From NCBI RefSeq assembly GCF_055900595.2, contig NZ_CM148325.1: DNA of 64,000 nucleotides. One strand, 5' to 3'. Both the position numbers and the translations under genes were made by a program. Below are positions 2,801-64,000 of the stretch, piece after piece (position 1 is the stretch's first letter; each line of letters starts with the position of its first letter). Under the pieces are notes generated by a model that made no database searches, was not told the origin of the DNA, and was given only the letters and a program-made list of their open reading frames with translations.

Positions 2801-4237
2801 ATGAATCGTGATTCCTTTTACCCAGCCATCGCCTGTTTTCCTCTGTTACTGATGCTGGCCGGGTGTGCGCCTATGCATGAAACCCGCCAGGCGTTAAGCC
2901 AGCAAACACCCGCTGCGCAAGTTGACACCGCATTACCTACGGCGCTGAAAAATGGTTGGCCAGACAGCCAATGGTGGCTGGAGTATCACGATAATCAACT
3001 CACTTCATTAATTAACTATGCACTGCAGAACGCACCGGATATGCAGGTGGCTGAACAGCGCATTCAGCTGGCTGAAGCCCAGGCGAAGGCAGTTGCCACT
3101 CAGGATGGCCCTCAGATCGATTTTTCTGCGGATATGGAGCGGCAAAAAATGTCGGCAGAAGGGCTAATGGGGCCGTTTGCTCTGAACGATCCTGCCGCAG
3201 GTACGACCGGTCCGTGGTACACCAACGGTACTTTTGGCTTAACGGCGGGCTGGCATCTCGATATCTGGGGAAAGAATCGGGCGGAGGTAACTGCTCGCCT
3301 GGGTACGGTTAAAGCACGAGCGGCGGAACGCGAGCAAACCCGCCAATTGCTGGCTGGCAGCGTTGCCCGCCTTTACTGGGAGTGGCAAACCCAGGCAGCG
3401 TTAAACACTGTTTTGCAGCAAATCGAAAAAGAGCAGAACACCATTATCGCGACCGATCGCCAGCTATATCAGAACGGGATTACTTCTTCAGTTGAAGGTG
3501 TGGAAACCGATATTAATGCCAGCAAGACCCGGCAGCAGCTCAACGATGTCGTGGGAAAAATGAAAATTATTGAGGCACGGTTAAGCGCACTTACAAATCA
3601 CCAGATAAAGTCATTGAAGCTTAAACCGGTTGAGTTGCCGAAAGTGGCAAGTCAGCTTCCTGATGAACTGGGGTATTCATTGCTGGCACGGCGGGCAGAT
3701 TTGCAGGCAGCGCATTGGTACGTTGAGTCATCGTTAAGCACCATTGATGCGGCAAAAGCGGCATTTTACCCTGACATCAACCTGATGGCCTTCCTGCAAC
3801 AGGATGCGTTGCACTTAAGCGATTTGTTCCGTCATTCCGCGCAGCAAATGGGCGTTACGGCAGGCCTGACGCTACCCATTTTCGATAGTGGTCGTCTTAA
3901 CGCCAACCTCGATATTGCAAAAGCCGAAAGCAACTTGTCTATCGCCAGCTACAACAAAGCGGTGGTTGAAGCGGTGAATGACGTGGCGCGGGCAGCCAGT
4001 CAGGTTCAGACGCTGGTGGAGAAAAACCAGCATCAGGCGCAAATTGAGCGCGATGCCTTGCGTGTGGTAGGTCTTGCGCAGGCCCGCTTTAACGCGGGTA
4101 TCATTGCTGGTTCCCGCGTCAGCGAAGCCAGGATCCCGGCGCTGCGTGAGCGGGCCAATGGCCTGTTATTGCAAGGGCAGTGGCTGGATGCCTCCATTCA
4201 ACTCACTGGTGCGTTGGGCGGGGGGTACAAACGCTGA
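2801..4237 (+). CDS. mdtQ: Outer-membrane efflux lipoprotein (NodT/OMF family), intact
   Basis: 478 aa from MNRDSFYPAIACFPLLLMLAGCAP (lipobox LAGC); ORF-track start 2711 is an upstream TTG extension. K-12 mdtQ (yohG) is a pseudogene by my recollection; here the frame is open. Confidence 0.8.
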   Translation: MNRDSFYPAIACFPLLLMLAGCAPMHETRQALSQQTPAAQVDTALPTALKNGWPDSQWWLEYHDNQLTSLINYALQNAPDMQVAEQRIQLAEAQAKAVATQDGPQIDFSADMERQKMSAEGLMGPFALNDPAAGTTGPWYTNGTFGLTAGWHLDIWGKNRAEVTARLGTVKARAAEREQTRQLLAGSVARLYWEWQTQAALNTVLQQIEKEQNTIIATDRQLYQNGITSSVEGVETDINASKTRQQLNDVVGKMKIIEARLSALTNHQIKSLKLKPVELPKVASQLPDELGYSLLARRADLQAAHWYVESSLSTIDAAKAAFYPDINLMAFLQQDALHLSDLFRHSAQQMGVTAGLTLPIFDSGRLNANLDIAKAESNLSIASYNKAVVEAVNDVARAASQVQTLVEKNQHQAQIERDALRVVGLAQARFNAGIIAGSRVSEARIPALRERANGLLLQGQWLDASIQLTGALGGGYKR

Positions 4238-4289: not shown

Positions 4290-5051
4290 ATGGTACAGGT
4301 CGCGATTATTACCGCTTCCGATTCGGGGATCGGCAAAGAGTGCGCGTTATTACTGGCGCAGCAGGGTTTTGATATTGGTATTACCTGGCACTCAGATGAA
4401 GAAGGGGCAAAAGATACCGCGCGTGAGGTGGTTAGCCACGGCGTACGTGCGGAGATGGTGCAGCTCGATCTCGGTAAACTGCCAGAGGGGGCACTGGCGC
4501 TGGAGAAACTTATTCAACGGCTGGGGCGCATCGATGTACTCGTGAATAATGCGGGCACAATGACCAAAGCGCCGTTTCTTGATATGGCTTTCGATGAGTG
4601 GCGCAAGATTTTTACCGTTGATGTTGATGGTGCATTTTTATGCTCGCAAATTGCGGCCCGCCAGATGGTGAAACAAGGGCAGGGCGGTCGCATCATCAAC
4701 ATTACGTCGGTACATGAGCATACGCCGCTGCCGGATGCCAGCGCCTATACAGCTGCTAAACATGCACTCGGTGGGCTAACCAAAGCGATGGCGCTTGAGC
4801 TGGTCAGGTATAAGATTTTGGTGAATGCAGTCGCGCCTGGGGCTATCGCCACACCAATGAATGGCATGGATGACGGCGACGTGAAGCCCGACGCGGAGCC
4901 TTCGATTCCCCTGCGGCGTTTCGGCGCAACGCATGAGATTGCCAGCCTGGTGGCGTGGTTATGCTCTGAAGGCGCAAATTACACCACCGGGCAGTCGTTA
5001 ATTGTCGATGGTGGCTTTATGCTGGCGAATCCGCAGTTCAACCCAGAATAG
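4290..5051 (+). CDS. yohF: Short-chain dehydrogenase/reductase YohF
   Basis: 253 aa; TASDSGIGKE cofactor-binding motif and YxxxK active-site motif (YTAAKHAL). Confidence 0.85.
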   Translation: MVQVAIITASDSGIGKECALLLAQQGFDIGITWHSDEEGAKDTAREVVSHGVRAEMVQLDLGKLPEGALALEKLIQRLGRIDVLVNNAGTMTKAPFLDMAFDEWRKIFTVDVDGAFLCSQIAARQMVKQGQGGRIINITSVHEHTPLPDASAYTAAKHALGGLTKAMALELVRYKILVNAVAPGAIATPMNGMDDGDVKPDAEPSIPLRRFGATHEIASLVAWLCSEGANYTTGQSLIVDGGFMLANPQFNPE

Positions 5052-5094: not shown

Positions 5095-5180
5095 GCATGA
5101 TAAGACGTGCAAGCGTCGCATCAGGCATGGTGCGACGGATGTCGGATGCGGCGCAAACCGCCTTATCCGAGGCAATGGTT
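5095..5180. repeat. REP (palindromic unit) sequences between convergent yohF and yohD
   Basis: GCGTCGCATCAGGC / GCCTTATCCG-type REP motifs. Confidence 0.5.
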
Positions 5181-21179: not shown

Positions 21180-23051
21180 TCACCTTCGCCACTGATTACC
21201 TGCGCATTCTGCTTTCAGCGCGGGGAAATCGAAACGTAACAGGGCCTCAACTGCGCTTTGTGGCATTATTTTTTTTTCGTATTGTTCTTCTCCGGTTCTG
21301 CTCCATTCCTTAAACCCCAGTAGCCAAAGGATTTGCTGTTCTGGCGTTAAAGGGATGAAAGACGTTTCCCAGCTTTCCTTTTCAATTAGTGGCAGATCGG
21401 TAAATAAGGTTTGCTGTGATGCCTGATATTTCGCGATTTCACTGAATCTGGATATGTCAGTGTGACTGATTAACTCTGTAATTCCAGGTGTGATGTCAGT
21501 GACGGAAGGGATGGGAAGTACCGGTAAATCAAATACGGGTATTACATTCTTTTTCTTATTTATTGCCCACGGTGGAGCGACAAGCAGCTCTGGCAACATA
21601 TCCGCAGTGGCATACTCACATTCTTCAGCGACTGACTGAGGACGACATTCAGATAATATGCCTGCCGCCTTAGCATTAACCCAGGGAATGACGTCGCATA
21701 CTAACTCTGGCGTGACGGTAACCAGTTTGACAAGCGCGTTGCGCCACTGTGCGTCTTCATGTATTGCCAGCAAAGTTGCATAAGCGGCAATAGCCGCAGC
21801 GGGATGTTTTTGGCAGGCTTTGCTTAAGTATTCCAGGTGCTTTTTCTTGCTATTTACACCGAGGATCAGAATTTGAATCGCATCCGGGTGATTCGTTTTC
21901 CATAGCCATTTGACAAGATCTTCAGTCTCGCTGATGCGCTCGAAGAGATAAGTGGGATTGTCAGAATGCTCTTCCACAAACTCAGTAAGTATCCGGCTTA
22001 CACCGCGCACGCCATTATTCGCCAGCAACATTGCCAGATAAGCGCGAAAATCACGATGCAATGGTGGGAAGTCGTATTTTTCGGTTGTAGTGGGAGCAGC
22101 GTCATTGGTTACCACCAGTCTTAACCAGGTCATCGCAGGGACGTTTTGATCTGCATAATGTAGCGCCATAGCATTGGCAATATCCGGGCGTTCAGGGATC
22201 AGTAATGCAGCAAAAGGTTGCCGTGCGGGGGATAGCGTCGGAATAGCAGTAAGCACTTTATCCACACAGCGTTGCCACTCATCTTCTGAAGCGAGTGAAA
22301 GATGATGACATAGACGTTGATGCCAACTCGGTAGCGATTCTGCTTCGTGATTAGGTGGAATGATGGTGGTTACTGCGCCTTTTACTGGTTTATATTTGAG
22401 TTGAAGAGCGAGAAGGGCGATTTCAACGGCACTTTCCAGACCACAGCGAATGACTAAGTCATCGACCAGTTCATCTTGAGAGTAAGAGTTCCAAAAGCCC
22501 CAGAGCAATGCTGCATCAGATTGCGCACTCCCTGTCGGTTGATTACCCTGAACTCGCATTTGTAACTCAGCAAAAGCCTGCTGCCAGTTTTCTGGATAAG
22601 AGCGGTAATTATTGTCGGGGTCATATGCCCTCGTGTTATTCGCGATGCGCTTCCATATTTGGCCATCTTTGTGCAGATAATTGATATCTCTGGGGCGAGA
22701 GCGATGTGGAAAAGCAAATCGGTTAATATCGTCGGTTAGCGGAATGGCTGCATCATCAGCCAGCCATGGGCGTTTGTTTTTACTCTCAGGTGAAGTTTCA
22801 ACTTCAGGAGTGACTTTGGTGACGGGGGGGATATGTACGTTTGCCGAAGCGTCTTCCACATAGCCTTTTTTCGTTTTCTCAGCGATAAGCTTCAGTTCCG
22901 CTTTTTCCGCCGCCGCAGCATCCGCAAAGCTTTTTATCTGGCTTTGCCCTTGGGTGCCAACTTTTCCCCAACTGATATGCAACTCGTTACCTTGCTGCCC
23001 CACCGCCCAGAATTTATGCGATTTTTCGTCCTGATAGATATAACTCTTCAT
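21180..23051 (-). CDS. WGR-domain protein (MolR/YehI-like), probably truncated
   Basis: 623 aa; N-terminal WGR domain (YQDEKSHKFWAVGQQGNELHISWGKVGTQGQSQIKSF); directly downstream of metG, where K-12 carries molR. Confidence 0.7.
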   Translation of the reverse strand: MKSYIYQDEKSHKFWAVGQQGNELHISWGKVGTQGQSQIKSFADAAAAEKAELKLIAEKTKKGYVEDASANVHIPPVTKVTPEVETSPESKNKRPWLADDAAIPLTDDINRFAFPHRSRPRDINYLHKDGQIWKRIANNTRAYDPDNNYRSYPENWQQAFAELQMRVQGNQPTGSAQSDAALLWGFWNSYSQDELVDDLVIRCGLESAVEIALLALQLKYKPVKGAVTTIIPPNHEAESLPSWHQRLCHHLSLASEDEWQRCVDKVLTAIPTLSPARQPFAALLIPERPDIANAMALHYADQNVPAMTWLRLVVTNDAAPTTTEKYDFPPLHRDFRAYLAMLLANNGVRGVSRILTEFVEEHSDNPTYLFERISETEDLVKWLWKTNHPDAIQILILGVNSKKKHLEYLSKACQKHPAAAIAAYATLLAIHEDAQWRNALVKLVTVTPELVCDVIPWVNAKAAGILSECRPQSVAEECEYATADMLPELLVAPPWAINKKKNVIPVFDLPVLPIPSVTDITPGITELISHTDISRFSEIAKYQASQQTLFTDLPLIEKESWETSFIPLTPEQQILWLLGFKEWSRTGEEQYEKKIMPQSAVEALLRFDFPALKAECAGNQWRR

Positions 23052-33715: not shown

Positions 33716-33988
33716 ATGTCTCATACAATCCGTGATAAACAGAAACTGAAAGCGCGTGCCAGTAAGATTCAGGGCCAGGTCGTGGCGCTCAAGAAAATGC
33801 TCGACGAGCCGCACGAATGCGCAGCTGTTCTACAACAGATTGCTGCTATCCGTGGCGCGGTAAACGGCCTGATGCGCGAAGTGATTAAGGGGCATCTGAC
33901 GGAACACATCGTTCACCAGGGGGATGAGCTAAAACGTGAAGAAGATCTGGATGTCGTTCTGAAGGTGCTGGATTCTTATATCAAATGA
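33716..33988 (+). CDS. rcnR: Ni/Co-responsive repressor RcnR (CsoR/RcnR family)
   Basis: 90 aa; conserved H-C-H-H metal-ligand pattern of the family. Confidence 0.92.
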
Positions 33989-34097
33989 AAGTGCCTAATA
34001 TGGCCGTAGTTGAGGCAATAAATAGAGGGACAAGTGACGTTAAGCTGAATTAGAGTAAATGGCGTGAGGACACACGCCATTCGAGGATATAGTTTGA

Positions 34098-34412
34098 TTA
34101 ATTTTCGAAAAATTGCTTCACAGCCCAGCCACCATGACCACCTGGAGTTATGAATGAAACAAAACCTTTGTCATCGACGCTCTGGATTTCTACTGTCATT
34201 GATTCATCTAACACGCGACATTTATTGGATGTAATGAGACTCAGCATAGCCTGTTGGTCATTGTCCTGAATGTAACTGATCATCTCGTAAAAGTCAGTTA
34301 ACTTTTTACAGTTAAATGTACCTTCTTTAAGTGTTGCGCTGTCTCCGTGACTTAGTGCGAATGCATTTGGCATCATTGCCACAAAGATGACGGTAACGAG
34401 TAGTTTTTTCAT
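34098..34412 (-). CDS. Small secreted protein, unknown function (signal peptide, 2 Cys)
   Basis: 104 aa, MKKLLVTVIFVAMMPNAFA signal peptide; low-GC context; function not recognisable by eye. Confidence 0.6.
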   Translation of the reverse strand: MKKLLVTVIFVAMMPNAFALSHGDSATLKEGTFNCKKLTDFYEMISYIQDNDQQAMLSLITSNKCRVLDESMTVEIQSVDDKGFVSFITPGGHGGWAVKQFFEN

Positions 34413-34421
34413 TGTAGCCTC

Positions 34422-34769
34422 TTATAATTCAGAACATTCACTGATGTTGTAAGTGCCTTTTCTACCATCATCGTTTACGAGATGTAGCACGAAGATGATG
34501 GGATTGGCATCAATGAAAGATACAGAGACGTTCCCGCTTTCGGTGCTATACATCTTTGCAATCTGTTTTTCACCAATATATGAAAGATCCCAACTCACTC
34601 CGTTCAAGCTAAAATGCATCTGTTTGCCGTCAATATCGATGGAGGATTGTGCCGTAACGGTTTTCCCATTGCTGCCAATTTGACCCTGCTGAAGAGCATC
34701 ACATTTATAGGAGCTTGCATAAGTAAATAGAGGTAGTAGCAGAAGTGCAGCAAAAATTTTACTCTTCAT
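34422..34769 (-). CDS. Small secreted protein, unknown function (signal peptide, 2 Cys)
   Basis: 115 aa, MKSKIFAALLLLPLFTYASS signal peptide; tandem with the 104-aa ORF 9 bp downstream. Confidence 0.6.
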   Translation of the reverse strand: MKSKIFAALLLLPLFTYASSYKCDALQQGQIGSNGKTVTAQSSIDIDGKQMHFSLNGVSWDLSYIGEKQIAKMYSTESGNVSVSFIDANPIIFVLHLVNDDGRKGTYNISECSEL

Positions 34770-35137
34770 ATTTTCCCTTTGCTTGGATTTGAGTTACCTA
34801 TTTTGGGGTAGTCATTATAAAACTATTAATTAGTAAAATGAACAAGTTTTCATTTGTTTAGTAATGGTATTGTTTAGGTTTGAAATTATTACGTACTTTC
34901 ATAGCAATAGGTTGGATAAACAGCAGTTCAGGGAACAAGTTGCACTATCTACATACTTTCCCGCTTTCCATTGTATGTTAGGTAATAGATAGCCTTTGCC
35001 CGTAAGACTAAAAATATTAGAAATGACTCATTCGAATACCTTCTATTCACCTTAATATAGGTTTGATTATTGTAATCGTTTAATGTGTCTTATGGATTTT
35101 TTCCTACTTTTCATTTGCATAATATAGGGGGCACAGC

Positions 35138-35257
35138 ATGCTCTTGAAATTAATTATTAAGATATTTAAATTTTACAGCACACAACTACTTTTCGTTGTC
35201 TTATGTGTTGAACGTACTTCGAGTATAGGTAGGGTTGTATATATATTGCGTGGGTAG
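35138..35257 (+). CDS. Candidate small hydrophobic peptide (39 aa)
   Basis: ORF MLLKLIIKIFKFYSTQLLFVVLCVERTSSIGRVVYILRG preceded by TAGGGGG about 7 nt upstream; lies in the AT-rich islet; below the ORF-track cutoff; could be spurious. Confidence 0.25.
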   Translation: MLLKLIIKIFKFYSTQLLFVVLCVERTSSIGRVVYILRG

Positions 35258-35822
35258 AGTTAGAATAGAGGAGGCATCATTTATAGAATATTCAAGAACG
35301 TTAACCTGTGATCAATAAATAAAAATATCAAATGGTGTTCAAACATATTTTTCTATGAAAAATCCAGCCATCTATGATGAATTTTTAGATCCATTTTAAT
35401 TAAAGTATGATTATGAACCAATATTTAGCCAAGAATGGTGGTATAGCGCGTATCCAATGACACCGGAAAACGCATCTATGAAGTCCTTGTTTATCTCTAT
35501 AAGAGGAAATCAACACTAATAAAATATAGTGATGTAACACATCGAGCAGGTTGCTCTGATGCTGGTCTTCAACTGTGGCTTAAACAGCTATCAAACTTCG
35601 GTGTTATTGAGATGAAAGAATTATCTTTCTCAACTTTCAATCTCAAAAAGCTAGAGGAAATAGACCTTAATTATTCCACTCTCTAAACTTATCTCTTTAT
35701 TTAAAGTAAAAATGAAAATATTATGGTATCAGCTACGTGGTGGTAACTGGTGTTTATGATCATAGGTACACATATACAGGGAACCCTGGAAAACAAAAGT
35801 AATATATTGATGATTTCGTTTG

Positions 35823-36062
35823 TTATAACTTCGTGGTATCAAGTCCGGCGGCTTTGAGTCGCTCGGTAAGATTTCTCATTTTGCTGAACTCTGTACCAAA
35901 GCTGGCTTTAAGTCCTACACCTTCGCAAAACTCTTTTGCCGTGACGTTTTTAAGATGGTCAGCGTATTTGATCATCTGGAGGTGCATTTCCATCGTTTGG
36001 CTATTTCGTGGTGCGCTGCTAATGGCTTGCTTAATGTTCTCGTAGATCTGGGTTTCTGTCAT
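35823..36062 (-). CDS. Small putative DNA-binding protein (79 aa), unknown family
   Basis: ORF with a GGTGAGA RBS; central helix-turn-helix-like segment (VTAKEFCEGVGLKASFGTEFSKMRNL); AT-rich upstream region with 12-bp direct repeats. Confidence 0.55.
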   Translation of the reverse strand: MTETQIYENIKQAISSAPRNSQTMEMHLQMIKYADHLKNVTAKEFCEGVGLKASFGTEFSKMRNLTERLKAAGLDTTKL

Positions 36063-36269
36063 TTTTTATCTCACCTATCAAATTTAGATAAATAATATAA
36101 ATTAGATAAATAAGATAATCAATAGTTTTTACCATATGAATAATGGATGTGGATTGTTTCTTTTTCATTTCTGATATGGAGTACAAAATGGGGTCACAAT
36201 GAAGAAGCGATGAATGGAGGCGAGCTTGCATCTGCAAGCCTCTTCCCCTAATCTGGCACAAAATATAGA

Positions 36270-36407
36270 GATTCAACCAAACGACTCGGGGTGCCCTTCT
36301 GCGTGAAGGCTGAGAAATACCCGTATCACCTGATCTGGATAATGCCAGCGTAGGGAAGTCACGGACCACCAGGTCATTGCTTCTTCACGTTATGGCAGGA
36401 GCAAACT
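36270..36407 (+). promoter_or_regulatory. TPP (thi-box) riboswitch in the thiM leader
   Basis: Sequence AACCAAACGACTCGGGGTGCCCTTCTGCGTGAAGGCTGAGAAATACCCGTATCACCTGATCTGGATAATGCCAGCGTAGGGAAGTC... matches the E. coli thiM aptamer and expression platform; the anti-SD region overlaps the thiM RBS. Confidence 0.9.
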
Positions 36408-51743: not shown

Positions 51744-52225
51744 AATCGTATGCCTTTATGATTGGTCTGTAGATAGTGTAGAGCAGAAAAGAAAAGGCGG
51801 AGTCAGAACAGGATGAAAATCGGAGGATAAAAAATCAGTTCAAGGATGGGGAATTCAGTGGTTACCAGTAAGGGGGGCAACGGTACACTCGGTTTTTATC
51901 GGCATAAATGATCACTGAAAGCACTTAAGCATTATTTTACTGTGGATTCAGCGTGGCAGCGAACATTAACGGTAGTCAGGGACAAACTTCAAAAGAGCAT
52001 ATGCATCATATTCAACAAAGCAATGGCATCCTCAATGTACGATTCCAATTATATTAAATAATTCCTATGAGGTTATCTGTGATAGGCCTCCATGTCTGTA
52101 TTTCCTACTTATGTAGGAAATTCTGCACAAAACATTTATTATAATCCTATTCAATAATGACAATGATGTCATTATTATATTTCAACACTAGAGAGTGTCG
52201 TTGGTGTTTAATGGGGGAAGGTGAG

Positions 52226-52543
52226 ATGAAAAAGACAGCTGCTATATCATTAATTAGTGTTTTTCTTATGTCTGGTTGTGCTGTGCATAATGATGAGACA
52301 AGTATCGGTAAATTCGGTCTTGCCTATAAAAGTAATATCCAGCGTAAACTCGATAACCAATACTACACTGAAGCCGAAGCATCTTTAGCCAGGGGCAGAA
52401 TATCTGGTGCGGAAAATATAGTGAAAAATGATGCAGCTAATTTCTGTGTTACTCAGGGCAAAAAAATGCAGATAGTTAACCTGAAGACTGAAGGGGCAGG
52501 ATTACATGGCGTCGCGCGTCTGACATTCAAATGTGGAGAGTGA
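52226..52543 (+). CDS. yegR: Lipoprotein YegR
   Basis: 105 aa from MKKTAAISLISVFLMSGCAV (lipobox); GGAAGGTGAG RBS; ORF-track start 52157 is an extension. Confidence 0.8.
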   Translation: MKKTAAISLISVFLMSGCAVHNDETSIGKFGLAYKSNIQRKLDNQYYTEAEASLARGRISGAENIVKNDAANFCVTQGKKMQIVNLKTEGAGLHGVARLTFKCGE

Positions 52544-52891
52544 GAATAGATTCAAGACTACCATGGACACATCCATTTTTATCTCTGATAAGGTATTCTT
52601 CAACACCATTATTGAATGTGAGTAATAATGACAAGCAGATAGATGAAACTACAGCAGAATTTTTATTTTATGCGGCTATCAGAAAATGATGGCATAAATA
52701 TTCCTATGCTTTAGCTTCATTTTTTGTAAGCGTCAAACATGCGCGTTCTGGCTGTGCGTAGCCGGACCCTGTGCGAGCACGATGCCGTTAAGTGAAAGGC
52801 ATCGTGCTATGAAGGGGAATTCTATCGATATGGTCAATGGAAGGAGGTAACCAGGTATGAATCCTTCCTTCTGTTTCATTGAATTACGCAT

Positions 52892-54424: not shown

Positions 54425-54629
54425 AATTCTCTCGTTCTGATGACAGGTCAGATCCGCTTCACCTGATGAAGCGGTTAGGGGAGTGCCCCCACTTTAAGGG
54501 CGGGCATTGTAGCGCAATCGGTGGGGTTGACTCCAGTGACAATGTTAAGGGAAAGACTGAGCGCATTTATTTCGTTTTGATTCCGATAGTCGTCAGGTTC
54601 AATTGTTATCAGTTGACCTTAATTTGGTG

Positions 54630-56030
54630 TTAAAGAAAGGGAATATAACCCCATAACTTGTTGTGAAGTTCCGGATTGCAGGTAAAAAGCGCCTGAAGTT
54701 GCTGACGCTGAGGAGCATTTGGTTGAATGTCCGAAAGATTGAAATTGCGTTGCCATATCGCGAGCTGTTTACCTGCAAATTCTTCAGTTAGCTTGTGTTG
54801 CGATTGCAGAAGAAGAATTAAACAGGCCCATTTGTTCAAGTTATGATACAGCCGACAATATGCGCAAGCATGTTTAACTGATGGTGCGTTTTCCAGCAAC
54901 TGACGTATTTCCTCGAACGTGAGCGGAACTCGACACCATACACAGATGTTAACCATAAATCGAAGCCCGGAGGCGTCCGGGTTAGCCAGTGTGGTCAGAA
55001 TAATCCCTTTGACACCACCATCAGGATTGGCTTTCGCAAGAATATACATAGCGGCTAATCGCAGTGGGAATACATCCTGTGATAATCCCCATTCTGCCAG
55101 TTTTAAAATATTGGCATCATGAATGGAGTCCAGCCCGTATAAAGCTGCCCGGCGCTGTGAGGGAGTATATTCAGTCGAGGTGACAACATGACGCCAGAAT
55201 TGCACAACATCCATGACGTCATTAAGCATGTTTTTAGCGCGTAGACGGATCAACATATTGTTATCCAGCAGTAATGCGCTGTACAACGCCGGAGGAATTT
55301 CTATAGCTCGGTCAGTAAGGCTAAACAACGTTGCTTGTCGAATACGCGGCCAGCGGTCTTTTAACAGACGAGTTAATACCGCTTCGCTTAACGGTAATTG
55401 TTGACGCAGCCAGTGGGTGACCGCCAGCATTCGTAAACCTTCGTCGGGCTGCTTGAGTATTAAAAGCAGCGAAGATTCATCATTAAAGTAGCCATATTCA
55501 ATCAGCGTTTGTAATACTGCGCGGGAGAGTTTTTTATCAGGGCAAGTAAGCCAACACGTTAATTGTGGACGGCTATTTTCTGTCAATAAAAATCTAAGTA
55601 TCTCGTCTACAAATGCACGGTGATCGTAACGCTGGCATTGGAGAAGGTTACGTATCAAGGGAAGATTAACGGCAAATGCCGCTGCATTCTTATCCTTCTT
55701 TAAATGACGTAACGCTATGGTTGCAGCAAGGCGAACCTCTTTTACCCAGTCATTAGCTGCAAGTAATAATTCTTCTATAGCTGCAACATCCTCTTTTTGT
55801 CCCAGACATTGCACGGCCTTTTCTCGTATATATCCATTGTGGTGATGGGTAAGCTGGCAAAGAACCAGAGTATCGTTGAGATCACAATCATGCGCTATAT
55901 AATTGCCTGGATCGGCTATCATCGACTGGAGTTGTTGCTGGATAAGAAATAATTCACAGTCAACAGAATTATTCATTTCGACGTTAAACAAAACCCTGCG
56001 TGTAAATAATGTACGCAATCCTTTGAGCAT
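54630..56030 (-). CDS. HEAT-repeat protein of unknown function (466 aa), likely accessory
   Basis: Uninterrupted 1401-nt ORF with an AAGGA RBS; at least three PBS-lyase/HEAT-like repeat pairs; Cys-rich segment CVWCRVPLTFEEIRQLLENAPSVKHACAYCRLY; by-eye GC content below the flanking genes. Confidence 0.75.
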   Translation of the reverse strand: MLKGLRTLFTRRVLFNVEMNNSVDCELFLIQQQLQSMIADPGNYIAHDCDLNDTLVLCQLTHHHNGYIREKAVQCLGQKEDVAAIEELLLAANDWVKEVRLAATIALRHLKKDKNAAAFAVNLPLIRNLLQCQRYDHRAFVDEILRFLLTENSRPQLTCWLTCPDKKLSRAVLQTLIEYGYFNDESSLLLILKQPDEGLRMLAVTHWLRQQLPLSEAVLTRLLKDRWPRIRQATLFSLTDRAIEIPPALYSALLLDNNMLIRLRAKNMLNDVMDVVQFWRHVVTSTEYTPSQRRAALYGLDSIHDANILKLAEWGLSQDVFPLRLAAMYILAKANPDGGVKGIILTTLANPDASGLRFMVNICVWCRVPLTFEEIRQLLENAPSVKHACAYCRLYHNLNKWACLILLLQSQHKLTEEFAGKQLAIWQRNFNLSDIQPNAPQRQQLQALFTCNPELHNKLWGYIPFL

Positions 56031-56110
56031 AATTTTCCTTATCAGTTATGAGGAGAAAACTCATTTCATGATTAATAATTTCCTGAGGGATAGTAACTCT
56101 GTGATGAGAG

Positions 56111-56145
56111 AAAATAAAGCCGGACGCCAACAACCTACGCCCGGC
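56111..56145 (-). terminator. Rho-independent terminator of yegP
   Basis: Minus-strand hairpin gccgggcg...gcgtccggc followed by TTTATTTT, immediately after the yegP stop. Confidence 0.55.
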
Positions 56146-56152
56146 ATCGTAA

Positions 56153-56485
56153 TTACGTATTGTCTTTCACCGTCTGGCTTGTGCCATTGGCTTTAACGGA
56201 GGCAATTCCGGTTTCACGAGATTGCGCGGTGGCGTACATCTGGCTGGAGCCGATAATTTGATGATTGGCGGCTTTCAGATTGAAATAGAATTTGCCGTTG
56301 CTTGCTGTTTTTTTCTCATAGCGTTCTTCTTGTGGGCTGTTGCTACGCACTGACGCGATGCCCTTTTCCGCAGAGGCTTTTGAGGTATACAGCTCGCTGG
56401 TGAGGATAGTCTCACCATTGCCCGCTTTTAGCACAAACCGGAATTGATTATCACTGCTCCTACTGAGTTCAAACCAACCAGCCAT
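56153..56485 (-). CDS. yegP: UPF0339/DUF1508 tandem-domain protein YegP
   Basis: 110 aa from MAGWFELSRSSDNQFRFVLKAGNGETILTSELY...; internal tandem repeat of the DUF1508 unit; ORF-track start trimmed. Confidence 0.88.
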   Translation of the reverse strand: MAGWFELSRSSDNQFRFVLKAGNGETILTSELYTSKASAEKGIASVRSNSPQEERYEKKTASNGKFYFNLKAANHQIIGSSQMYATAQSRETGIASVKANGTSQTVKDNT

Positions 56486-56664
56486 AATGACTCCTTGATT
56501 GAAATTGCGTATCGAAAACAGCATCTAAAAGGACTGTTTGCCGATTAAAGTATGAGCGATTTTCAGGTGCTTGCCAGGGCGGAGAGATAATGTCAGATAG
56601 CCGACAATGCGCGGGATAATGCTGCCGGATGTGGCGTGAATGCCTTCTCCGGCAGGTAAAAATG

Positions 56665-57387
56665 TTAAACGATGCGGCAGGCGTCGGCTTCCCAGCGATA
56701 ACCGACACCGTAGACGGCGCGGATAAAAGACTGCTCTTCGTCCAGAGCTTCCAGCTTGCGACGCAGGTTTTTAATGTGGCTGTCGATGGTGCGGTCAGTT
56801 ACTACGCGGTAGTCGTCATAAAGGTGGTTCAACAACTGCTCACGGGAGAATACTTTTCCCGGTTCATGAGAGAGCGTTTTCAGCAGACGAAATTCCGCAG
56901 GCGTCAGGTCAAGCATTTTACCGCGCCATGAAGCCTGAAAACGACCTTCGTCGATAATCAACGGGCTTTCGGCATCCTGTTGCTGCAACTCGCGCTGCGG
57001 TTTGCAACGGCGCAAAATGGTTTTGACGCGCGCTACCACTTCCCGTGGACTGTACGGCTTACAGATATAATCATCTGCGCCAATCTCCAGCCCGAGCAGG
57101 CGGTCGATCTCTTCGATTTTTGCTGTCACCATCACGATCGGAATGTCAGAAAAACGACGAATTTCCCGACACAACGTCAGGCCATCGGTGCCAGGGAGCA
57201 TCAGATCCAACAGGATCAGATCCGGTGGTGTCTGGCGCACATATGGCAGTACCTGATCGCCGTGGCTGATAAGCGTCGGCGCATAGCTCGCAGCACGCAG
57301 ATAATCAATAAGCAACTGCCCCAGCTTCGGTTCATCTTCCACGATCAAAATACGTGGCGTGTTTTCGTCGATTGGTAACTCGGTCAT
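56665..57387 (-). CDS. baeR: OmpR-family response regulator BaeR
   Basis: 240 aa; receiver domain ([14 protein letters not shown]) plus winged-helix output domain. Confidence 0.92.
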
Positions 57388-58787
57388 ACTTCTCTCTGTA
57401 AATCCCGTTCCAGCGGTAACTCTACTGTAATGCTTACCCCGCCAAAAGGCGAATGAGCGGCAACAATGCGACCATTATGTGCTTCAACAATGTTAAGACA
57501 AATCGCCAGCCCCAGGCCGGAACCGCTGCTGGCACGGTTGCGGGAACCTTCAGTGCGATAAAAACGCTCAAACAATTTTTGCAGTTGATCGTCACTAACG
57601 CCCGGTGCACTGTCGGCAAAGGTCAGGCGCACCGTTTTGTCATGTTGCTCGGCAGAGATATGCAGGCTGCCGCCGCTGTCGGTATAGCGCAGGCTGTTTT
57701 CCAGTAAGTTATTGAACAACTGCATTAAACGATCGCGATCGCCAAATACGGTAATGCTGTCTGGCAGGGAAAATTGCAGTTTCAGCCCGCGGCTGGCGAA
57801 ACGCTCACGAAATGCGCCACCCGCGACTTCCAGTAGCGGGATCAGATCCACCGACGATTTCTGGTAGGCGAGAGCGCCTTCATCAGACATCGACAATTGA
57901 TGAAGATCATCCACCAGTTTGGTCAGTGTACCGACCTCTGCCTGTAAAGAAGCCACCGTCTCCGGCGTGAATTTACGCACGCCATCCTGAATAGCTTCCA
58001 GTTCGCCGCGCAGTACCGCTAAAGGCGTGCGCAGCTCGTGGGAGATATCGGCCATAAAATCGCGGCGCATCTGTTGGTTTTTCTCCAGCGTGCTGGCGAG
58101 CTGGTTGAAGTCTTGCGCCAGTTTGCCCAATTCATCTTCACTGGTGGGCGTCACGCGAGTAGTGAAATCGCCCGCTGCCAGTTTGTGTGTACCGTCCACC
58201 AGTCGTTTGACCGGAGCCAGCAAACCGCGCGCCAGTGGGAATGTCGCCAGCGCCGCTAACAAGGTAGATAAAGCGACAATCAGCCAACTGGTTTGCCTCT
58301 GTTGTCTGTCAAAATTGATATCGGTATTGCGGGTCAGTCGTTCAACAGGGGAGGCGATCACCGCACCCACTTCCGCCCCATTGACCATAATGGGCCGCCG
58401 TGTGCCGTCTGGTGGAATCGGTGCTCGCGGGCCAACCAGCACTTTGTTGTTTTGATCAACCACCCAGAATTGCGTGCGCCAACCGTGTGGCGGCATACCG
58501 GGGCCGGGCTTATCTTCGTTGTTATCATGCTCCAGCGAACGTAGGATCTGAAATACAAAGCGATCGTTATTACGCAGGAAGCGCCAGTTCCCGTGCTGGG
58601 CGTACTGCTCACCAAGCGCATCGCCGAGCATTTGCAGCCGTTGTTCATTACCATGCTTGATGTAATCGATAAAGCCGCGCTCAAAACTGATACGTACCGC
58701 CCAGTGCATCGTGATCAATAAGACAATGCAGGTGGCGAAAATCGCCAGAAACAGTTTGCCGGTAATACCGGGTCGCCAGAACTTCAT
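57384..58787 (-). CDS. baeS: Envelope-stress sensor histidine kinase BaeS
   Basis: 467 aa; two TM segments, HAMP, H-box ([11 protein letters not shown]), ATPase domain; 4-bp overlap with baeR. Confidence 0.92.
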
Positions 58788-60199
58788 TGCGCGCTCCTTT
58801 TTCGCCGCGAAATAGCGACATTTTGATGCGTATCGTTTGGCACTCTGGCAAAGATAAACGCCGGAAGGGCGATGATAAACGCCATGCTAAGCCAGGTGTA
58901 CATAAAGACGGTTTGTGTGGTGCCGCTGTCGACGCTGACATGCTGTGAACCAAAAAGTCCCAGCAACAGCCCGGCGATAGTGACGCCGATACTCATCGAC
59001 AATTGCATAATCATCGACAGCAGGCTGTTTCCGCTGCTCGCCAGATTGTCCGGGAGATCTTTCAGCGTCAGGGTGTTCATGGAGGAGAAACGCGTCGAGT
59101 TGACCATCCCTTGTAAAAACAGGACGAACGGCAAAACATAGTACCAGCCCAGCAGAGCAGTGGTCATAAATAGCAGGGTGACCAGCGACAGACCCAGCGT
59201 GGTCGCCACCAGTACCCGACGATAACCAAAGCTATTCACTACCTGTACCACAATTCGCTTCATCCCCATGCTGCCGAGCACCATCGGGATCATCATCAGT
59301 CCGGCATGAAACGGTGAGAAGCCAAGGCCAATTTGCAGGAAAACCGGCGTCATAAAGGGCAACATGCCGCTACCGATACGTCCGGCAAAACTCCCCGCCA
59401 GACCCAGCGAAAAAGTACGAGTACGGAACAGTTTCAGACTGAAAAGAGCGCGGTTGTTATTTCTGGCGTGCAGCAGATAAAGCACCAGTGCTACCACGCC
59501 AATCGCTGCCAGTCCGGCAATCGCCAGCGGTGAAAGTCCCGTGCCTTTACTGCCATCCAGCGCCAGCGTTAATACCGCCATGCCGACCGCCAGCAATAAA
59601 AAACCGGAGAGATCGAAACGCCGCGTCTGCATGGTGTAGTTTGGCATTAACATCAGCGTGGCGATCGCACCGATAATCCCTACCGGTATGTTGATCAAAA
59701 AGATCCAATGCCAGGACGCGTATTCCACCAGCAGGCCGCCGAGCGCCGGACCCAATAGTGGGCCGACCTGACCGGGCAGCGTAACAAAGGTCATCGCCGC
59801 CATATATTGCTCGCGCGGTACAATTTTCATCACCGTAAGCCTGCCGACCGGCACCATCATCGCGCCGCCAACGCCCTGTAACGCGCGTGCCAGCAACAGT
59901 TCGTTTAGCGTGGCAGAAAGCGCGCAAAACAGCGAACCGAGGGTAAACAGCACGATGGCGGTAAAGAAGATATTGCGTACGCCGACTTTGTCCGCCAGCC
60001 AGCCGCTGGCGGGCAGCATCACCGCCACGGTCAGTACATAAGATACGATGACCATGTGCATATGCAGCGGGCTTTCCCCGAGGCTTTGCGCCATTGAGGG
60101 AAGCGCGGTGTTAACGATGGTGGTGTCCAGCGACTGCATAAAGAAGCCGAAAGCCACAATCCACAATTGCCAGCGGGTGCTGTCGGGAAGATCTGTCAT
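58784..60199 (-). CDS. mdtD: MFS transporter MdtD
   Basis: 471 aa, 14-TM MFS pattern; 4-bp overlap with baeS. Confidence 0.9.
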
Positions 60200-63100
60200 T
60201 TACTCGGTTACCGTTTGTTTAGGTTTACGCGAAAAACGCAGCCGCAGACGGTCAAAAAAGAGATACACCACTGGCGTGGTATACAGCGTCAGGAGCTGGC
60301 TCATTACCAGACCGCCGACAATGGTGATCCCCAGGGGTTGGCGCAGCTCCGAGCCGTCACCGCCCGACAATACCAACGGCAGCGCACCAAACAGCGCCGC
60401 CAGGGTAGTCATCATAATCGGGCGAAAACGCAGCAGACAGGCCTGGAAAATAGCTTCCTGCGGCGTCAGGTTACCGTGCCGTTGGGCTTCGAGCGCAAAA
60501 TCGACCATCATAATGGCGTTTTTCTTCACGATGCCGATTAATAGCATGATCCCTATCAGGGCGATTAGGCTGAACGGGGCATTGAATAGCTCCAGCGCCA
60601 GCAGCGCCCCAACGCCCGCCGAGGGCAGGGTGGAGAGAATCGTCAGTGGATGCACGTAACTCTCGTAAAGGATACCCAGCACGATATACACCGTGGCGAT
60701 GGCTGCGATAATCAGGATTACCTGCGAGTTCATCGTCTCCTGGAATACCTGCGCTGTTCCGGCAAAACTGCCACGCACCGTCGAAGGCACACCAAGCTGG
60801 GTCATTGCGCGGTCGATCGCCGCACTGGCGTCCGAGAGCGATTTCCCGGTCGGCAGGTTAAACGAGATGGTCGAGGCCGCCGATAATCCCTGATGATTCA
60901 CCGACAGCGGGGCATTCGCCGGTTGCCATTTAGCGAAATATGACAGAGGGATCGCTTTTCCTTCGTTATTAATGACGAACATTTTTTCCAGTGCACTAAT
61001 GTCCTGGGTATAGCGTGGATCCACTTCCATCACCACTTTATACTGGTTCATGGGCTGGTAAATGGTCGAGATTTGCCGCTGACCGAAGGCGTTATTCAAC
61101 AGGCTGTTGGCGGCCTGCACGTCGATTCCCAGCCGTGCCATAGTGTCGCGGTCGTAAACCAGATTCATCTCCGCGCCGTTATCTTGCTGGTCGGAATTCA
61201 CGTCCGCCAGTTCCGGCAATGTCGCCAGTTTTTTGCGGATTTTCGGCTCCCATTCGCGCAGCGCCGCCAGGTCGTCGGAGAGCAACGTATACTGGTAACT
61301 GGCGTTCGACTGACGTCCGCCAACGCGAATATCCTGCACCGCCATCAGGAACAGATTCGCTCCCGGTTCTTTCGCCAGCTTCACCCGTAGACGGTCGATA
61401 ATTTGCTGCGCCGTTTCGCTGCGTTCGTCGCGTGGTTTGAGAGTGATAAACATCATCCCGCTGTTCACCCGCGAGCCACCGGTAAAGCCGGTGACATTAT
61501 CCACTGCCGGATCGTCACGGATAATTTTCATGAAATCCTGCAATTTGCCGCGCATCGCCTGAAACGAAATACTCTGATCCGCCTGTATCCCGCCCATCAG
61601 TACACCAGTGTCCTGCTCCGGGAAGAAGGTTTTCGGGATCGAGATATACAGCCAGATATTCAGCGCAATGGTGCCAAGCAGCACCACGCCCACCAGACGG
61701 GTATGATTGAGCACCCATTTCAGCGACTTGCCGTAGCCTTGTTGCAGAGCAACCAACATGCGACCAAAACCACGCAGACGCTTTTGCTCGCGCGGCTTGC
61801 TGGCTTTTAGCATCCAGCCGCACATCATCGGCGTTAACGTCAGGGAAACCAGCAACGAAATACCAATGGCGACAGAAAGCGTCACGGCAAATTCGCGTAA
61901 CAGTCGGCCCGGCAATCCGCCCATCAACAGCAGCGGCAGGAACACCGCCACCAGTGACAGACTCATCGACAGTACCGTAAAGCCGACTTCGCGAGTACCT
62001 TGCAGCGCGGCCTGTAGCGGTTTCATCCCCGCTTCCAGATGACGGGCAATGTTTTCCAGCACTACGATGGCGTCATCCACCACGAAACCAGTAGCGATGG
62101 TGAGCGCCATTAACGAAAGATTATTGAGACTGAAACCGCACAGGTACATCGCCGCAAACGTACCAATCAGCGAAACCGGCACCGCAACGGCGGGAATAAT
62201 AGTGGCGCGACCCGAGCGCAGGAATAAAAAGACCACCAGAATCACCAGCGCCACCGAGATAATCAGCGTTTGCTCGACTTCCTCCAGCGAGGCGCGAATG
62301 GTGGGGGAGCGATCCTGGGCAATTTGCAGATCAATCGCCGCCGGAATGGTCTCCTGCAACTCCGGTAATTTTGCCCGGATGCTGTCAACCGTCTGGATAA
62401 TATTGGCTTCCGGCAGCTTGCGGATCATCAGCAAAATAGCCGGTTTGGCGTTGGTCATCCCGGCGTTGCGCACATCCTGCACTGAGTCGGTCACCGTCGC
62501 TACATCGCCCAGACGAACCGCGCCGCCGTTGTTGTAATGAATAATCAGCGGTTGGTATTCGGTAGCGGTTTTTAGCTCATCATTGGTCTGTATCTGCCAG
62601 CGGTGAGTGCCATCTTCCAGCGCGCCCTGCGGTTTACGCACGTTGGCATTGCTGATGGCAGTGCGTACGTCGTCCAGCGACACGCCCTGATTAAACAGCG
62701 CCTGCGGGTTCAGCCCAACGCGCACGGCGGGCAACGAGCTGCCGCCGACATCGACATCACCGACACCGTCGATTTGCGAAATTGTCGGAGCCAGTTGCGT
62801 CGAGGCGAAATCGTACAGTTCACCCTGCGAATAAGTATCGGATGTCAGCGTGAGGATCATAATTGGCGCATCCGACGGGTTCGCTTTGCGATAGGTCGGA
62901 CGGCTGGGCATCCCACTGGGCAGCAAACTTTGTGCAGCGTTGATCGCCGCCTGCACATCGCGCGCTGCGCCGTTGATATCCCGATCAAAATCAAACTGCA
63001 AAATAATGCGCGTGCTGCCGAGCGAACTGCTGGAGGTCATTTCACTGACCCCGGCAATGCGCCCAAGTGAGCGCTCCAACGGAGTGGCAACGGAAGACGC

Positions 63101-63277
63101 CATTGTCTCCGGCGACGCACCGGGCAGCGAGGCGCTGACCATAATCACCGGAAAATCGACCTGTGGCAGCGGGGCGACCGGCAGCATACGGAAGCCCAGT
63201 ATGCCGCACAGGGTAATGGCGACCGACAGTAAAATCGTCGCCACCGGGCGGTAAATGAAGAGGGCAAAAAACTTCAC
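60200..63277 (-). CDS. mdtC: RND multidrug efflux permease MdtC
   Basis: 1025 aa; AcrB-like RND transporter. Confidence 0.92.
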
Positions 63278-64000
63278 TTACGCCTCCTCTTCATGACGAG
63301 CAAAGCGGCTTTTGGTCCACAATGCCAGGCGGTCGAATAGCAGATAAATCACCGGCGTGGTAAACAGCGTCAGCACCTGGCTAACAATCAGACCGCCGAC
63401 CATGCCGATACCTAACGGACGACGCAGTTCCGCGCCGACCCCGGTACTTAACATCAGCGGCAACGCGCCAAGCAGAGCCGCCAGAGTGGTCATCAGGATC
63501 GGGCGAAAACGCAGCAAACAGGCCTGGTAAATAGCATCGCGCGGCGACATGCCTTGCTCGCGCTCGGCAGCCAGCGCGAAGTCGATCATCATGATGGCGT
63601 TTTTCTTCACAATACCGATCAGCAAAATAATGCCGATGATGGCGATCACATCCAGCTCACTTCCGGCAATCATTAGCGCCAGCAGTGCGCCAACACCTGC
63701 CGTTGGCAACGTCGAGAGAATGGTGATCGGGTGAATAAAACTTTCATACAGAATGCCGAGCACGATATACATCGCCACCACCGCCGCGACAATCAGCCAG
63801 ACAGTGCTGCCCAATGCCGACTGGAAGGCGAGGGTGCTACCCTGGAACTGCGTGGTGATATCCACCGGCAGATTCAGCGTCTTTTCGGTGTCCATAATCG
63901 CCTGCACCGCATCGCCCAGCGAATAGTTATCCGGCACGTTAAAGGAGATGGTCGTTACCGGGAACTGATCCAGATGGTTGATGGAGAGCGGCGCAAAACG
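63278..64000 (-). CDS. mdtB: RND multidrug efflux permease MdtB, C-terminal part (5-prime end outside window)
   Basis: Frame open from the window edge to the stop at 63278; C-terminal RND TM bundle, paralogous to the adjacent mdtC C-terminus. Confidence 0.88.

Follow-up and report, generated by a model that had tools for sequence, protein, structure and literature searches.

Intact mdtQ in a diverged Escherichia genome: probably the ordinary allele of an orphan TolC-like channel gene that is frameshifted in K-12

Introduction

The gene mdtQ (formerly yohG) is a frameshifted pseudogene in Escherichia coli K-12. In contig NZ_CM148325.1 of NCBI RefSeq assembly GCF_055900595.2 it is an open frame, at positions 2801–4237 of the 64,000-nucleotide stretch analysed here (the window). 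Is this copy a special one, what does it encode, and which pump might its product serve? A first-pass annotation, made from the letters of the window, had implied that the intact copy stands out and that its product could pair with the MdtBC pump encoded at the window's opposite end. We conclude, with a probability of about 85%, that the frame is an ordinary functional allele of MdtQ (YohG), a lipoprotein of the NodT subfamily of outer-membrane factors (OMFs). E. coli has four TolC-like channels, of which MdtQ is one.

The mdtQ frame and its product

The features of the gene are as follows.

2801–4237, + strand: mdtQ coding sequence, 478 amino acids, intact (open reading frame, NF008524, two OEP stretches, OMF fold in the AlphaFold2 model, ratio of non-synonymous to synonymous divergence, dN/dS)
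2801–2866, + strand: lipoprotein signal peptide ending in lipobox L-A-G-C (direct sequence reading)
2948–2952, + strand: A5 run, codons 50–51 of mdtQ, where the K-12 lineage has A4

The frame runs from ATG at 2801 to TGA at 4235–4237 (1437 nt, 478 codons plus stop) with zero internal stops. Its product matches the MdtQ equivalog model NF008524 (NCBIfam) at 1018.3 bits, against a cutoff of 650, with residues 1–478 on model positions 1–478. Because this alignment is end to end, the frame holds no hidden frameshifts; together with the gap-free alignment of the window gene to mdtQ of E. coli strain C it excludes both hidden frameshifts, which could have undone the first-pass reading, and hidden stops. 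A mechanical listing of open reading frames gives a longer, TTG-started frame from 2711, with an in-frame ATG at 2720, so that the frame is open for 90 nt 5′ of the annotated ATG. The start at 2801 is favoured, since NF008524 aligns from residue 1 and RefSeq places an identical start in three strains.

The N-terminus of MdtQ (MNRDSFYPAIACFPLLLMLAGC) has Arg3 in its n-region, followed by a hydrophobic core, and ends in the lipobox L19-A20-G21-C22, the Cys22 codon lying at 2864–2866. When 40 relatives are aligned, only 16 columns are invariant, Cys22 among them; by the lipobox rule, Cys22 is the predicted lipidated first residue of mature MdtQ. The +2 residue is Ala, for which the +2 rule lets one expect sorting to the outer membrane. 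Pfam OEP (PF02321) is found in two stretches (E = 8.8e–31), the tandem repeats spanning the mature protein, and the NodT-subfamily model TIGR01845 covers residues 16–475 (271.9 bits versus a cutoff of 210.05).

The 40-sequence alignment served to build an AlphaFold2 model (mean predicted local distance difference test score, pLDDT, 82.8; predicted TM score, pTM, 0.76), which has four beta-strands (105–116, 139–153, 325–336 and 348–357) and long alpha-helical hairpins, in a duplicated helix-strand-strand-helix layout. Foldseek relates the model with probability 1.00 to VceC, OprN, CusC, OprJ, SilC, OprM, MtrE and TolC; the top PDB matches (VceC 1yc9, OprN, CusC, OprJ, SilC, OprM) have E-values of ~1e–21 to 1e–23 and TM scores of 0.70–0.88. 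By sequence, the nearest solved chain is VceC (E = 2.8e–39 versus ~1e–21 to 1e–23 for partners of RND pumps). At the level of the protomer, the predicted fold and the OEP repeats are those of an OMF (TC 1.B.17). The first-pass description of an intact 478-residue frame with a lipoprotein signal and full OMF architecture thus stands on the open frame, the lipobox, the OEP stretches and the NF008524 match.

Intact mdtQ across E. coli and the K-12 lesion

The first-pass annotation had named a frameshift in K-12, and alignment places it: one A has been lost from the A5 run at gene nt 148–152 (window 2948–2952), which shifts the frame and leads to a stop at codon 70. RefSeq flags the K-12 gene as 'frameshifted', and EcoCyc annotates the frameshift too. 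The lesion is young, because mdtQ of K-12 is separated from that of strain C by one single-nucleotide polymorphism plus the single-base deletion and nothing more. The K-12 pseudogene is a recent, lineage-restricted one-base loss and the window allele is wild type. Rescue of the A4 allele by translational or transcriptional slippage was considered and rejected, as the run appears too short and is without a slippery heptamer.

Matches to mdtQ are found in 5,420 of the 5,426 complete E. coli genomes, with at least 80% of the gene in one piece in 5,390. A 62-mer across the intact A5 run is present exactly in 4,588 genomes of this set, and the corresponding 61-mer with the A4 of K-12 in 355. Among the matches listed for the latter, 60 of 60 are K-12 laboratory derivatives, including MG1655, DH5alpha, C600, J53, BW25113-type strains and DH1. 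In a spread sample of 39 genomes, an mdtQ span shorter by 1 bp occurs only in the three K-12-derived records. Outside E. coli, full-length orthologs named MdtQ are found in E. albertii (94% identity) and in Citrobacter and Salmonella (80–82%).

By these genome counts the intact gene is not special: it is the E. coli norm, and the broken copy is peculiar to the K-12 laboratory lineage. The norm is also already published, as a 2025 review (PMC11762307) describes mdtQ as conserved in the core genome even though it is annotated as a pseudogene, with its function not elucidated. With the K-12 frameshift annotated as well, the intact copy carries little weight as a discovery. Its interest lies elsewhere: K-12 is a natural mdtQ mutant, and conclusions about channel use in E. 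coli, almost all of them derived from K-12, never tested MdtQ.

Selection and lineage divergence

We compared the window gene with mdtQ of strain C and found 46 synonymous and 6 non-synonymous differences (dS 0.150, dN 0.0055, dN/dS 0.037). This value is indistinguishable from those of the neighbours dusC, yohF, yohD and yohC (0.026–0.055). Because dN/dS is as low as 0.037, mdtQ is under strong purifying selection and selectively maintained.

The nucleotide divergence of mdtQ from K-12 is 3.6%; the 6.3-kb neighbourhood is 96.2% identical to K-12 and the whole window 93–97%. A special or recombinant mdtQ allele was rejected on these figures, since the divergence extends over the neighbourhood and the window and is thus lineage-wide. 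Only 17 of the 5,426 genomes carry mdtQ at 98.7–99.9% identity, and the remainder reach at most 96.9%. Given so few close matches and the 93–97% identity of the window to K-12, the source is a rare, deep-branching Escherichia lineage, perhaps a cryptic clade that carries the E. coli label. Compared with known E. coli mdtQ, allelic divergence typical of such a lineage is the sole difference; unlike K-12, the window allele keeps A5.

The nearest relatives of the source lineage come from humans, dog, goat, cattle, Tibetan pig and animal-source food. Within the window, the yegP-baeR-baeS-mdtD-mdtC segment (56119–61819) is 93.1% identical to K-12 and so more diverged than the rest (~96%), and the yegR region (51957–52548) is only 87% identical.

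Genomic neighbourhood of mdtQ

The genes and sites around mdtQ are as follows.

2494–2577, − strand: yohP, 27-amino-acid small membrane protein, divergent (coordinates from the RefSeq annotation of a 99.9%-identical strain)
2578–2800, no strand: yohP-mdtQ intergenic region, 223 bp, where the mdtQ promoter is expected
4290–5051, + strand: yohF, oxidoreductase of the short-chain dehydrogenase (SDR) family (NF009384, 482 bits)
5160–5173, + strand: terminator-like hairpin and T-run 3′ of yohF (consensus scan; weak, as hits are not above shuffles)

The gene order dusC-yohP (divergent)/mdtQ-yohF-yohD-yohC-pbpG-dld is the same in K-12, strain C, the nearest strain and Salmonella. The window gene thus sits at the chromosomal position of the MdtQ equivalog, in the order from dusC to pbpG; yohP adjoins mdtQ in K-12, strain C and Salmonella too. 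Within 10 kb of mdtQ, an orphan OMF gene, there is neither an adaptor gene nor a pump gene.

Across the upstream intergenic region, a 253-bp alignment with K-12 and strain C shows 15 differences (~94% identity). Downstream, yohF starts 52 nt 3′ of mdtQ on the same strand, a consensus scan found no terminator-like site between the two genes, and their adjacency is kept in Salmonella as well as on a metagenomic contig that carries a 59%-identical ortholog. yohF may be co-transcribed with mdtQ, and the hairpin at 5160–5173 could end an mdtQ-yohF transcription unit.

On the far side of dusC, directly upstream, the window carries maiA and a 3-hydroxybenzoate 6-monooxygenase gene of the gentisate pathway (12–302 and beyond the window edge). 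Salmonella shares gentisate-type genes there (cupin dioxygenase, FAA hydrolase, GST/maiA and monooxygenase), and K-12 and strain C have yohJK-cdd in their place. This suggests that the gentisate arrangement is ancestral, was retained in the window lineage and was lost from mainstream E. coli.

Candidate partners of MdtQ

Which pump might an orphan channel serve? We searched a representative library of 1.84 billion proteins for relatives of MdtQ and examined which genes surround the ten best full-length non-orthologous ones. The library shows an identity gap, with orthologs at 59% or more and the next relatives at 35–41%. The contexts of the ten relatives are as follows.

Directly downstream of a FUSC (PF04632) gene: P0125, P0127, P0128, P0129, P0130 (n = 5)
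With an MFS transporter: P0131, P0134, P0136 (n = 3; EmrA-like adaptor for P0131 and P0134; VceCAB/EmrAB type)
Upstream gene not identifiable, contig too short: P0126, P0133 (n = 2)
With an RND pump: none (n = 0)

Complete YtcA - AaeA-like adaptor - FUSC - OEP operons, which have the ytcA-mdtNOP architecture of E. coli, were found for three of the five FUSC-linked relatives. The FUSC and MFS contexts agree with two other findings, namely that MdtP is the best-scoring model among E. coli paralogs (351 bits; the CusC type reaches 93 and TolC 54) and that VceC is the nearest solved sequence. By analogy with these relatives, an RND pump such as MdtBC is a less likely partner of MdtQ than a pump of the PET/FUSC type (MdtNO-, AaeAB- or YdhJK-like) or an MFS pump resembling EmrAB. 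The context analysis directs the search for a partner to FUSC/PET and EmrAB-like pumps, away from RND.

The same picture emerges from comparison with known systems. MdtP (YjcP; YtcA-MdtN-MdtO-MdtP, NF007390) belongs to the closest E. coli paralog family, is likewise a NodT lipoprotein of similar length, and has the operon type in which the nearest non-orthologous relatives of MdtQ sit. However, the 351 bits of MdtQ fall below the MdtP equivalog cutoff of 597, and mdtQ lacks adjacent adaptor, FUSC and YtcA genes. In the MFS-type system VceCAB of Vibrio cholerae, the OMF is VceC (PDB 1YC9). It is the best solved match by sequence as well as in fold (TMt 0.85), and both proteins are lipoprotein OMFs; their identity is only ~25%, and the orphan MdtQ contrasts with VceC, whose adaptor and MFS pump are encoded alongside it. 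TolC (PDB 1EK9) has 12–13% identity to MdtQ and, unlike it, is not a lipoprotein. CusC (3PIK) has 23% identity and is operon-encoded with an RND metal pump.

By what is known of the family, MdtQ would be exported by Sec, lipidated at Cys22 and sorted by the Lol system. Three protomers would then form a 12-stranded barrel and a periplasmic alpha-helical tunnel, and the tunnel would dock on the hairpin tips of the periplasmic adaptor of an inner-membrane pump encoded elsewhere, upon which the exit duct would open. It is plausible that MdtQ pairs with an adaptor-dependent pump, of MFS type or another kind, whose genes lie at a different locus. Speculatively, an EmrAB-like system might be the partner, or else an E. 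coli PET/FUSC system without an OMF gene (AaeXAB, YdhIJK).

The pairing with MdtBC that the first-pass annotation had put forward starts from a correct observation, as the window does hold the pump genes, at its far end.

56665–63937, − strand: baeR, baeS, mdtD, mdtC and the 3′ part of mdtB (NCBIfam equivalogs)

The MdtC equivalog scores 2212 bits, the MdtD, BaeS and BaeR equivalogs are also matched, and only the C-terminal 219 amino acids of MdtB fall inside the window. The functional pairing itself finds no backing. The loci are ~56 kb apart, and no BaeR box was found in the whole window at up to three mismatches, with the consensus reported by Nishino et al. 2005 and the mdtA positive control lying outside the window; hence neither genetic linkage nor shared BaeR regulation of mdtQ with mdtABCD is seen. 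None of the 8 resolved contexts of close relatives is an RND operon, and two reviews place MdtABC among the TolC-dependent pumps.

Weighing the alternatives

Several observations weigh against a functional MdtQ with an adaptor-dependent partner. Growth and efflux of K-12 are normal without MdtQ. Independent mdtQ truncations have accumulated in isolates of Salmonella Typhi and Paratyphi A (PMC9241588). Since K-12 does without the protein and these lineages truncate it, MdtQ is dispensable in some niches. A sigma-70 consensus scan of 2578–2800 gave zero matches, with scan counts not above shuffles, and directly 5′ of the mdtQ ATG there is no match to a Shine-Dalgarno sequence (…TATTCCTCCATG), CCTCC preceding the ATG. 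Translation initiation looks weak, and because neither a consensus promoter nor a Shine-Dalgarno sequence is recognised, expression may be low or conditional. A weak promoter candidate with a short spacer can be picked out by eye (TTGCCA at 2725–2730, 15 nt, TATATT at 2746–2751); the empty scan agrees with PMC11762307, which gives the mdtQ promoter as without experimental confirmation. The partner-type argument draws on 8 resolved contexts, those of paralogs no more than 35–41% identical, and the orthologs themselves are orphans in Escherichia, Salmonella and the 59%-identical relative (short contig).

The reported phenotypes are no simple support either. PMC11762307, citing Sulavik 2001, lists sensitivity to puromycin, acriflavine and tetraphenylarsonium for an mdtQ null mutant. 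If the strain was K-12, its mdtQ carried the frameshift at codon 50 before it was deleted, and such phenotypes are not easily squared with that; a polar effect on yohF may explain them.

How do other readings fare against an ordinary functional MdtQ? That mdtQ is a decaying, functionally irrelevant gene still open by chance in this strain has next to no probability. It would account for the K-12 pseudogene, for the independent truncations in S. Typhi and Paratyphi A (PMC9241588) and for the lack of a recognisable good promoter or ribosome-binding site. However, a dN/dS of 0.037 over ~15% synonymous divergence, equal to that of housekeeping neighbours, effectively refutes decay, and orthologs at least 80% identical over their full length in Salmonella and Citrobacter, presence in >99% of E. 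coli genomes and the retention of invariant family residues point the same way. The idea that MdtQ is the dedicated exit duct of the RND pump MdtABC is very improbable too. The two loci share the window, the MdtABC operon has no outer-membrane gene, and NodT-family OMFs often serve RND pumps, OprM, OprN and CusC being among the fold matches. Against this, the loci lie on opposite strands 56 kb apart with dozens of unrelated genes between them, and the BaeR-box consensus is missing from the window at up to three mismatches; MdtABC is TolC-dependent according to the reviews and was characterised in K-12, whose mdtQ is broken; RND linkage occurs in 0 of the 8 resolved nearest relatives, and VceC, which serves an MFS pump, is much nearer in sequence than the RND partners.

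A two-gene module, in which a small molecule that the YohF short-chain dehydrogenase uses or makes passes out or in through the channel without classical tripartite pumps, would fit the shared strand, the 52-nt gap free of terminator-like sites and the adjacency kept in Salmonella and the 59%-identical ortholog. We consider it quite improbable: YohF is by family a cytoplasmic SDR without a signal peptide, the adjacency may be plain synteny inherited in Enterobacteriaceae, and we know of no OMF that works without adaptor and pump. Somewhat less improbable, and held tentatively, is the proposal that MdtQ, as a detached MdtP paralog, is the outer-membrane partner of PET/FUSC pumps without their own OMF gene (AaeXAB, YdhIJK) and was missed since efflux genetics was done nearly all in K-12. 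A 2021 Chem Rev review indeed gives the partner of AaeAB as 'AaeAB-?'. An obligatory role of MdtQ for AaeXAB-, YdhIJK- or EmrAB-type pumps is counted against by their characterisation in K-12, that is, without MdtQ. The strongest of the alternatives, still unlikely, is that MdtQ has no single dedicated partner and is a promiscuous back-up channel, able to stand in for TolC with several adaptors when TolC runs short or in certain stresses. This agrees with an orphan gene that is strongly purified by selection yet dispensable in K-12, with a fold common to TolC-like ducts and with multidrug phenotypes that, as reported (PMC11762307), are weak only. Yet the sequence affinity of MdtQ is to a specific MdtP/VceC-like subgroup, and E. 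coli mutants in tolC show broad hypersusceptibility, though they were mostly studied in K-12, where MdtQ is absent.

Other features of the window

At 21207–22855, 1.6 kb replaces ~14 kb of K-12 (the yehH/molR-yehI-yehK-yehL-yehM-yehP-yehQ cluster), and an open reading frame of 623 amino acids (21180–23051, − strand) spans the replacement; in its product, the only recognised domain is a WGR domain (PF05406) at the N-terminus. Between rcnR and the thiM thiamine pyrophosphate (TPP) riboswitch lies a 2.3-kb segment absent from K-12 (33986–36274), whose products are a 79-amino-acid HTH_73 protein and two small signal-peptide-like proteins of 104 and 115 amino acids, neither with a family match. A further 1.6-kb segment absent from K-12 (54515–56119) lies between trhP (yegQ) and yegP and contains an open reading frame of 466 amino acids (54630–56030, − strand) for a HEAT-repeat protein with no NCBIfam match. 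The gat (galactitol) region at 44500–50800 is continuous, the IS3 in gatR and the IS1 in the gatZ-like gene of K-12 GM4792 being absent, and gatR and gatZ appear intact in the window.
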